Under the pieces are notes generated by a model that was not told the origin of the DNA, did not search any database, and worked only from the letters and a program-made list of their open reading frames with translations. A stretch of DNA of 64,000 nucleotides from Gemmatimonas sp. (GTDB lineage: Bacteria > Gemmatimonadota > Gemmatimonadetes > Gemmatimonadales > Gemmatimonadaceae): positions 12,979 through 76,978 of the forward strand of contig JAABRO010000012.1 in the NCBI GenBank assembly GCA_011390885.1. The letters run 5' to 3'. Position 1 is the stretch's first letter; each line of letters begins with the position of its first letter. The position numbers and the translations under genes are program-made. Positions 24,519-25,558 of the stretch are shown piece by piece.

Positions 24519-24554
24519 CTGACGGTCAGGGCGCGATCAACGCCTGACCGTCAG
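24519..24554. terminator. Hairpin between convergent genes, a candidate bidirectional terminator.
   Basis: 12-bp perfect inverted repeat CTGACGGTCAGG (24519-24530) / CCTGACCGTCAG (24543-24554). The right arm overlaps the LPOR stop codon. Confidence 0.55.
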
Positions 24555-25558
24555 CGCGCAGCGAGCACCTCGCCGCGCACCTCGGCGTGGTCGAGCCCCG
24601 TGCACTGCGCCGTCAGGTCCCACAGCCGCCGCCCCAGCGCTTCGTCGCTGGCGCGTGCGGTGAGTGGCTGCGCGAAGGCGGCACGTCCTTCCTTCTGACG
24701 ATTGCCCCAGCTCCAGTGCACGCCCGACTGCGCGAACGCGTCGTCGGCTACCACCTGCGCCAGCCGATCGCCCGCCAGCTCCTGCGACACGTAGCCCTTC
24801 GTGATGTTCTTCTGGAACCACGGAAAGATCACCTGGAAGGCGCGCGGCGTATTGCGGAACAGCGGCGTGTCGGCCACACAGCCCGGGTAGAGCGTGTTGA
24901 ACACGATGCCCGTGCGCGCGTGATGGCGGCGGTGCAGTTCGCGGCTCGTGATCATGTTGCACAGCTTGCTGTCCTTGTACGCCTTGCCGGCCTTGAAGGC
25001 CTTGCCGTCGATCATGCTCACGGGCGCGCGGAACCCCGCCTCGAGCCCTTCGAGGTTGCCCAGGTCGGCCGGCGCGGGAATCGGCACCTTGCCGCCGAAC
25101 TCCGCCGCGTTCGCCGTCACCGTACCGAGAATGATCAGACGGCGTGACGCATGCGTGGACCGCTCGAGATCGGGGAGCAGCAGGTTCGCCAGCAGGAAGT
25201 GGCCGAAGTGGTTCGTGGCCACGCTGATCTCGTAGCCCTCCGGCGAGCGCATCGGCTCCGTGAGGCGCGGCAGGTACACGGCCGCGTTGCACACGAGCGC
25301 GTCGAGCGGGCGCCCGGTGGCGCGGAACGCGTCCACGAACGCGCGCACGCTGGCCTGCACCCCGAGGTCGATCGGCATGACCTCGTACCGGTTCCGGTCC
25401 ATGCCCAGGGACGCGGCCGCCCGTTCGCCCTTGGCGACGTCGCGACAGGCCATGATGACGTGCCAGCCACGCGTGGCGAGCGCGGCGGCGCCGTAGAGGC
25501 CGACGCCCGACGAGGCGCCGGTGATGATCACGGTGGGGGAAGCAGCGGAGGGCGTCAT
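24551..25558 (-). CDS. por: Light-dependent NADPH:protochlorophyllide oxidoreductase (LPOR), SDR family.
   Basis: 335 aa, colinear end to end with cyanobacterial LPOR as I remember it. Motifs: [39 protein letters not shown](F/L)[33 protein letters not shown](T/S)[44 protein letters not shown]. Confidence 0.9.

Follow-up and report, generated by a model that had tools for sequence, protein, structure and literature searches.

Light-dependent protochlorophyllide oxidoreductase, or LPOR, is an oxygen-insensitive, single-subunit, NADPH-dependent enzyme that belongs to the short-chain dehydrogenases (SDRs) and needs light to reduce protochlorophyllide at the double bond of ring D, whereas DPOR carries out the same reduction in the dark and is oxygen-sensitive (PMC7947762). 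LPORs of aerobic anoxygenic phototrophs (AAPs), including those of Gemmatimonas phototrophica, Gemmatimonas sp. TET16 and a Gemmatimonadetes MAG, have been published, functionally tested and reviewed (PMC7947762; PMC12654162). The G. phototrophica enzyme (GpLPOR) was purified by Chernomor et al. and had a light-dependent activity of 0.11 U/mg in vitro; in vivo, it failed to rescue a bchB mutant of Rhodobacter capsulatus (PMC7947762). Proteobacterial AAPs, among them Dinoroseobacter shibae, Erythrobacter litoralis and Limnohabitans, encode LPOR alongside DPOR, a type II reaction center and AcsF/BchE, a set that defines hosts of this kind (PMC7947762). The lack of RuBisCO and/or phosphoribulokinase is a further criterion for such hosts (PMC7947762). 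The published transfer cascade leads from cyanobacteria to alpha- and then beta-proteobacteria, with Gemmatimonadetes as the last recipient (PMC7947762).

The window analysed here is a stretch of 64,000 nucleotides (positions 12979-76978 of contig C12) from the genome of Gemmatimonas sp. (4.07 Mb in 62 contigs, 95% complete, 70.8% GC). It encodes an LPOR with 82% amino acid identity to GpLPOR over 95% of its length. The initial annotation was right in naming a phototrophic Gemmatimonas among the hosts of LPOR. In G. phototrophica AP64, LPOR (CP011454.1, 3,631,780-3,632,748) is a lone gene located 2.05 Mb from pufLM on a closed chromosome. The two enzymes fall in the same clade and have identical catalytic and cofactor residues, and in both genomes LPOR stands alone, outside a photosynthesis gene cluster of the same layout. 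The neighbors differ, as the G. phototrophica gene lies between genes for a PP2C phosphatase and a PepSY_TM protein, and the window gene between genes for a MOSC protein and a repeat lipoprotein. The window LPOR is thus an ordinary instance of an already known case, with an orthologue in a close relative and the same layout and stand-alone placement. We consider it about 90% probable, judging from sequence comparisons, that the gene encodes a functional light-dependent LPOR that provides an oxygen-tolerant route for bacteriochlorophyll synthesis beside DPOR, from a stand-alone position outside the cluster.

The LPOR gene and its product

LPOR is encoded on the minus strand by a 335-aa open reading frame at 24551-25558, with the ATG at 25558 and a TGA stop codon at 24551-24553. 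Family models, structure alignment and motifs agree on its assignment as an NADPH:protochlorophyllide oxidoreductase. The protein scores 498.8 bits on TIGR01289, the NCBIfam equivalog model for LPOR (EC 1.3.1.33; cut-off 331.35 bits), in a match that runs from position 3 to position 314 of the 315-position profile. The second-ranked family reaches 128 bits, which is under that family's own cut-off, and the generic SDR models of Pfam span just residues 9-146. Other SDRs encoded in the same genome score at most 59 bits on the LPOR model.

In a comparison with solved structures, 316 residues of the window protein (7-322) aligned without a gap to positions 6-321 of the LPOR of Thermosynechococcus elongatus (TeLPOR, 6l1h; E 2.6e-144). 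Synechocystis and plant PORB structures were also matched, and generic SDRs reached at most 78 bits. Cyanobacterial LPORs (T. elongatus 6l1h and 6rnv; Synechocystis 6l1g and 6r48) share the fold family, approximately 70% identity and all mechanistic residues with the window protein.

The gap-free alignment places residues of the window LPOR at an offset of +1 relative to TeLPOR, so that Y194/K198 correspond to TeLPOR Y193/K197. This catalytic pair lies within AYKDSK (YxxxK). The NADPH-binding glycine motif, GASSGVG, occupies residues 14-20, and R39 and K43 are kept. Also present are four conserved cysteines (C38, C90, C200 and C227). Such cysteines have been implicated in LPOR substrate binding, and the NADPH motif and Tyr/Lys pair are likewise LPOR-defining (PMC7947762, fig. 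1 legend). The residues equivalent to TeLPOR T145, Y223 and Q248 are all kept. All of these positions, from the NADPH motif to the four cysteines and the T145/Y223/Q248 equivalents, are invariant across seven aligned LPORs, which take in those of G. phototrophica, another Gemmatimonas, Polymorphobacter, Synechococcus elongatus and Leptolyngbya. The LPOR-specific insertion that forms the pigment-binding loop (residues ~147-190) aligns to TeLPOR without gaps, and the four hallmark segments listed in the initial annotation were all found, at residues 194-202, 223-236, 245-263 and 278-288. By these sequence measures, the open reading frame is a real gene for a full-length LPOR.

The window LPOR has a 13-aa C-terminal extension, encoded at 24551-24592, that is common only to the LPOR of the nearest relative (P0002, locus L029). 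In the alignment, the extension is absent from the LPORs of G. phototrophica, proteobacteria and cyanobacteria.

Photosynthesis genes of the host

Genes for bacteriochlorophyll synthesis and for a reaction center were identified by profile search of the whole genome. pufL and pufM are located at C22:2-1659, with Photo_RC scores of 326 and 347 bits, and pufL is truncated where the contig ends. The same contig encodes acsF (C22:13620-14612; 460 bits against a cut-off of 192.5), bchL (C22:15878-16660; 435.9 bits on TIGR01281, above cut-off), bchH (C22:16816-20592), and bchB and bchN (C22:21089-23584). BchN scores 597 bits on NF002768, above cut-off. BchB scores 721 bits on NF002790, under the full-length cut-off, with the Pfam-matched fragment as the scanned sequence and a frame that is open for 585 aa. 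bchZ, bchY and bchX are at C20:1948-5718, and bchE is at C23:12132-13613 (811.8 bits against a cut-off of 481).

Across the whole genome, matches above cut-off to Photo_RC, Oxidored_nitro, AcsF, BchH and BchE all fall on C20, C22 and C23. The same is true of strong NifH-type matches (BchL and BchX); the remaining Fer4_NifH matches, on C43, C54 and C9, are weak and of the P-loop type. No photosynthesis gene matches of these families were found on the window contig, C12, in the whole-genome search, in agreement with the earlier observation that no such genes lie near LPOR. C22 from 42 kb down to position 1, followed by C20 from 1.7 to 35 kb, is collinear with the 80 kb that surround pufLM in G. 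phototrophica AP64, at approximately 45-92% amino acid identity in the matched segments. Thus, the cluster spans the junction of those contig ends. A tblastx search of the same 80 kb against the whole assembly gave zero matches on C12. LPOR is at least 37 kb from both ends of this 79.7-kb contig, so that its place outside the photosynthesis gene cluster is genuine.

By its gene content, the host is a bacteriochlorophyll-making, Gemmatimonas-like phototroph. The initial annotation had offered two alternatives. The one that it named first, a host that makes (bacterio)chlorophyll and encodes LPOR apart from its photosynthesis gene cluster, is borne out by pufLM, bchLNB, bchXYZ, bchH, acsF and bchE on other contigs; the subset for which it proposed looking in the remaining genome (bchLNB, bchXYZ, pufLM and acsF) has all its members on C20 and C22. 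A non-phototrophic host, the starting point of its other alternative, is ruled out by the full photosynthesis gene set on C20, C22 and C23.

The bchE gene is on a contig apart from both cluster contigs, and acsF lies within the cluster. Like LPOR, bchE is therefore one member of an oxygen-regime enzyme pair that is placed outside the cluster. Elsewhere in the genome, a single match to the RuBisCO large-subunit family was identified (C28:5987-6817; 165.8 bits). The matched fragment of 277 aa scores at most 161 bits on all curated models for RuBisCO and RuBisCO-like proteins, for which the cut-offs are 409-700. From these scores, the protein looks like a RuBisCO-like protein and not a carboxylase.

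Distribution of LPOR in the family

An even sample of 151 genomes was drawn from the Gemmatimonadaceae, the family of the host. Reaction-center genes occur in 16 of these and LPOR in seven, all within the 16. LPOR was found in none of the 135 sampled genomes that lack reaction-center genes. The idea that a non-phototroph retains LPOR for another role is contradicted by this pattern (7/7 LPOR genomes have reaction centers; 0/135 others have LPOR). LPOR is absent from nine of the 16 genomes with reaction-center genes and is thus dispensable for phototrophy in the family.

Genomic context of LPOR

The gene convergent with LPOR (23703-24500, plus strand) encodes a 265-aa putative lipoprotein, recognized from its reading frame and repeats, that is beta-solenoid-like. 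Its N-terminus is lipoprotein-like, its DNA is periodic with repeats of 57-60 nt, and no match above cut-off was found for it among Pfam and other family models. Upstream of LPOR and co-directional with it is a gene for a protein with MOSC_N and MOSC domains (25640-26509, minus strand; PF03476, 86.6 bits, and PF03473, 76.7 bits). The flanking genes are unrelated to LPOR, as first described. The description of a hairpin at the 3' end of LPOR was likewise correct, but gaps of 60-80 nt to the neighbors were not, the real gaps being 50 nt (3') and 81 nt (5').

The hairpin is a GC-rich stem-loop at 24516-24557 (minus strand, dG -37.5 kcal/mol, z -3.0; z -2.4 on the plus strand). It overlaps the LPOR stop codon and sits in the 50-nt convergent gap between LPOR and the repeat lipoprotein gene. 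The stem-loop has no U-tract, and a consensus terminator scan made no call there. The 81 nt that separate LPOR from the MOSC gene (25559-25639, minus strand) are a possible promoter region or a read-through spacer. A TTATAT element occurs there, approximately 45 nt 5' of the LPOR ATG, and a promoter scan called no sigma-70-like site in the spacer. Because the fold of the spacer is insignificant (z -0.65), LPOR, which the initial annotation described as apparently monocistronic, may be co-transcribed with the co-directional MOSC gene.

On the opposite strand, a 312-aa open reading frame (26472-27410, plus strand) overlaps the start of the MOSC gene by 38 nt. It encodes a predicted membrane N-terminus and a C-terminal half with a left-handed beta-helix (hexapeptide acetyltransferase-like). 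This half is weakly similar to the terminal domain of Pls/PosA-type NRPS (82.9 bits, under cut-off).

LPOR occurs in four different contexts in the four Gemmatimonas genomes compared, which are the window genome, G. phototrophica, the nearest relative (L029) and a further genome of the same genus (G112). In L029, the gene is located between orthologues of genes that are on C1 and C4 of the window genome. Nucleotide homology between L029 and the window is restricted to 24538-25550, essentially the coding sequence. These two copies, the closest of all, share 86% nucleotide identity, and homology ends at most ~15 nt from the coding sequence on both sides. LPOR of G112 is more divergent (75% identity) and adjoins orthologues of genes on C43.

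For G112, window positions 12391-23912 and 24500-25640 were compared with locus L118 (G112:C4:912000-931999). The regions are collinear. The G112 orthologues of the repeat lipoprotein (61% identity) and MOSC genes are separated by 8 kb of other DNA, at exactly the place that LPOR occupies in the window. With collinearity interrupted by large indels, and ~8 kb of unrelated DNA in G112 in place of LPOR, this is a variable chromosomal site. No LPOR adjoins the MOSC orthologues of G112 and G. phototrophica. Neither the MOSC protein nor the repeat lipoprotein is functionally linked to LPOR. Approximately 11.5 kb of the window, including genes for a TonB-dependent receptor and a GDSL lipase, is absent from G112.

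Several candidate partners of LPOR were considered and rejected. A conserved neighborhood or operon partner was not found; the genes for the MOSC protein, the repeat lipoprotein and the GDSL lipase adjoin LPOR only in the window genome. The Fer2 and MoCoBD genes of the window are not counterparts of the LPOR neighbors in G. phototrophica; they are paralogues, and better matches are on C28. A gene for a PP2C-type Ser/Thr phosphatase directly abuts LPOR in G. phototrophica and in at least five Gemmatimonas or Gemmatimonadaceae assemblies (L109:8941-9816, with L019 and four other loci). The best homologue in the window (35924-36760) shares 59% identity with the L019 gene and 39-51% with its G. 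phototrophica counterpart. It is not an LPOR partner here, as it is 10 kb distant and its orthologue in G112 (83% identity) is unlinked to LPOR. At 2 kb from LPOR, the window encodes a CBS-domain protein that is a putative M50 protease (27437-28639, minus strand), and homologues of it are found ~3 kb from LPOR at eight picocyanobacterial loci. With an identity of just 27-31%, however, this is probably coincidence and not the trace of a co-transferred protease.

Predicted function and alternative explanations

As a single-subunit short-chain dehydrogenase, the window LPOR would bind NADPH and protochlorophyllide. Once the bound pigment has absorbed a photon, a hydride from NADPH and a proton via the Tyr/Lys pair would be transferred across the C17=C18 double bond of ring D, which would yield chlorophyllide a. 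Light-dependent protochlorophyllide reduction by this protein is predicted by proxy of the 82%-identical GpLPOR. Chlorophyllide a would then pass through the BchXYZ branch to bacteriochlorophyll a, in contrast to cyanobacteria, where LPOR serves the production of chlorophyll a for oxygenic photosynthesis.

DPOR catalyzes the same ring-D reduction and is encoded in the same genome. It is, however, an unrelated, nitrogenase-like, ATP-dependent Fe-S enzyme that is oxygen-sensitive, has three subunits (BchL, BchN and BchB) and is encoded inside the cluster on C22. As DPOR appears intact, LPOR is redundant on paper. The host is probably a Gemmatimonas-like aerobic or microaerophilic anoxygenic photoheterotroph, in which LPOR would be the oxygen-tolerant route used in the presence of light and oxygen, and DPOR would operate in the dark or at low oxygen. 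The AcsF/BchE pair may cover the same two regimes for the cyclase step. The family assignment and catalytic residues of LPOR, its location and the photosynthesis gene set of the host are shown by the sequences; we infer that LPOR is expressed and active in vivo and that it divides labor with DPOR. The genome is marked as that of a phototrophic member of the Gemmatimonadaceae with both oxygen-sensitive (DPOR, BchE) and oxygen-tolerant or oxygen-dependent (LPOR, AcsF) enzymes, and paired enzymes at two steps of bacteriochlorophyll synthesis fit microaerophilic to aerobic life in light. Beyond correct annotation, the finding is of little importance.

LPOR could instead be a decaying or physiologically idle relic of an old transfer, with DPOR responsible for all protochlorophyllide reduction. 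Such a relic would be compatible with an intact bchLNB set, with the nine of 16 phototrophic genomes in the family sample that do without LPOR and with the failure of GpLPOR to complement in R. capsulatus (PMC7947762), but the frame is open and full-length, all catalytic and binding residues are intact, and codon adaptation is above the genome median. Moreover, orthologues with 80-95% identity persist in many Gemmatimonas genomes and metagenome contigs, which implies purifying selection. We therefore regard an idle LPOR as improbable.

That LPOR has been recruited to some function instead of bacteriochlorophyll synthesis, for example to sense light or to reduce some other tetrapyrrole, is more improbable still. 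The position of the gene outside the cluster, among unrelated genes, might be taken to suggest it, as might the phosphatase gene that abuts LPOR in several relatives, although that adjacency is not kept in the window (where the homologue is 10 kb off) or in G112. Against it are the restriction of LPOR to genomes with reaction-center genes among the 151 sampled, the substrate-side cysteines and pigment-binding loop, which are unchanged relative to characterized LPORs, and the fact that the closest characterized homologue, GpLPOR, reduces protochlorophyllide. Mis-binning of C12 from a cyanobacterial or proteobacterial contaminant has next to no probability, even though the assembly is fragmented (62 contigs) and its contamination is estimated at 1.17%. 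The flanks on C12 are collinear with the same-genus G112 at 56-83% amino acid identity over more than 20 kb, GC3 and codon usage of LPOR match the genome, and the LPORs closest to it come without exception from assemblies of Gemmatimonas or Gemmatimonadales, among them the closed chromosome of G. phototrophica. A functional LPOR that contributes to bacteriochlorophyll synthesis in this Gemmatimonas is the explanation that we favor over these three.

Origin and mobility of LPOR

The closest database proteins (80-95% identity) are from Gemmatimonas, Gemmatimonadaceae and Gemmatimonadales assemblies and from metagenomes, and cyanobacterial and proteobacterial LPORs have 66-77% identity to the window LPOR. 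In a maximum-likelihood tree of 88 LPORs, the sequences of anoxygenic phototrophs are split from the cyanobacterial ones with 98% SH-aLRT support, and the window LPOR is placed beside that of L029 in an eight-member G. phototrophica clade (99% SH-aLRT). Proteobacterial AAP LPORs, with 70-77% identity, are on the same side of the split as the window LPOR but come from another phylum. The tree thus places the protein among LPORs and not among generic SDRs, as the initial annotation had it. Its designation as cyanobacterial-type has to be qualified, since the sequence belongs to the aerobic anoxygenic phototroph clade, on the opposite side of the 98% split from cyanobacterial LPORs.

The remaining Gemmatimonadota LPORs form two or three further groups, and the backbone of the tree is unresolved. 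In an AU test, a tree that holds all 18 Gemmatimonadota LPORs together was not rejected (p-AU 0.62), and the constrained tree scores slightly better. From these sequences, a single origin of LPOR in Gemmatimonadota is possible. Several separate acquisitions, as a quick tree with at least three groups had suggested, are not established, given the unresolved backbone and the p-AU value. LPOR was probably inherited within the Gemmatimonas LPOR lineage, and the ultimate source would be a cyanobacterial LPOR, via horizontal transfer.

The composition of LPOR was compared with approximately 2,000 gene-like open reading frames of the same genome. LPOR has a GC3 of 0.911 (71st percentile) and ranks at the 77th percentile for a CAI-like index, and neither value sets it apart from its neighbors or from the genome. 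A recent horizontal transfer visible by composition is thereby rejected, and the GC3 and codon comparison that was earlier proposed as a test of transfer yielded no compositional mark. The values would fit a long-resident, well-expressed gene. The data add modestly to the published transfer scenario and to the position of G. phototrophica in it, through the restriction of LPOR to reaction-center genomes (7/16 vs 0/135), the finding that a single clade is not rejected and the varying location of the gene.

A single acquisition of LPOR by Gemmatimonadaceae, followed by relocation of the gene as a one-gene unit, is conceivable, although we consider it rather doubtful. It would account for four unrelated contexts in four genomes while the 80-kb cluster region stays collinear, and for the confinement of homology between the closest copies to approximately the coding sequence. 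No flanking inverted or direct repeats and no mobile-element genes were found around LPOR, where short repeats are at chance level. A plainer explanation of the varied contexts, and one of no lower probability, is ordinary rearrangement in a plastic part of the chromosome. If relocation did occur, the photosynthesis island, horizontally acquired and otherwise fixed, would have in LPOR, and perhaps in bchE, an accessory that moves freely.

Two of the LPORs gathered for comparison have unexpected affiliations. That of a MAG labelled Rhizobium sp. Q54 is nested in picocyanobacterial sequences and has a cyanobacterium-like neighbor gene, and that of a MAG labelled Bdellovibrionales clusters with those of Sphingomonadales. 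In each case, it appears that the contig was mis-binned or that the gene was transferred very recently.
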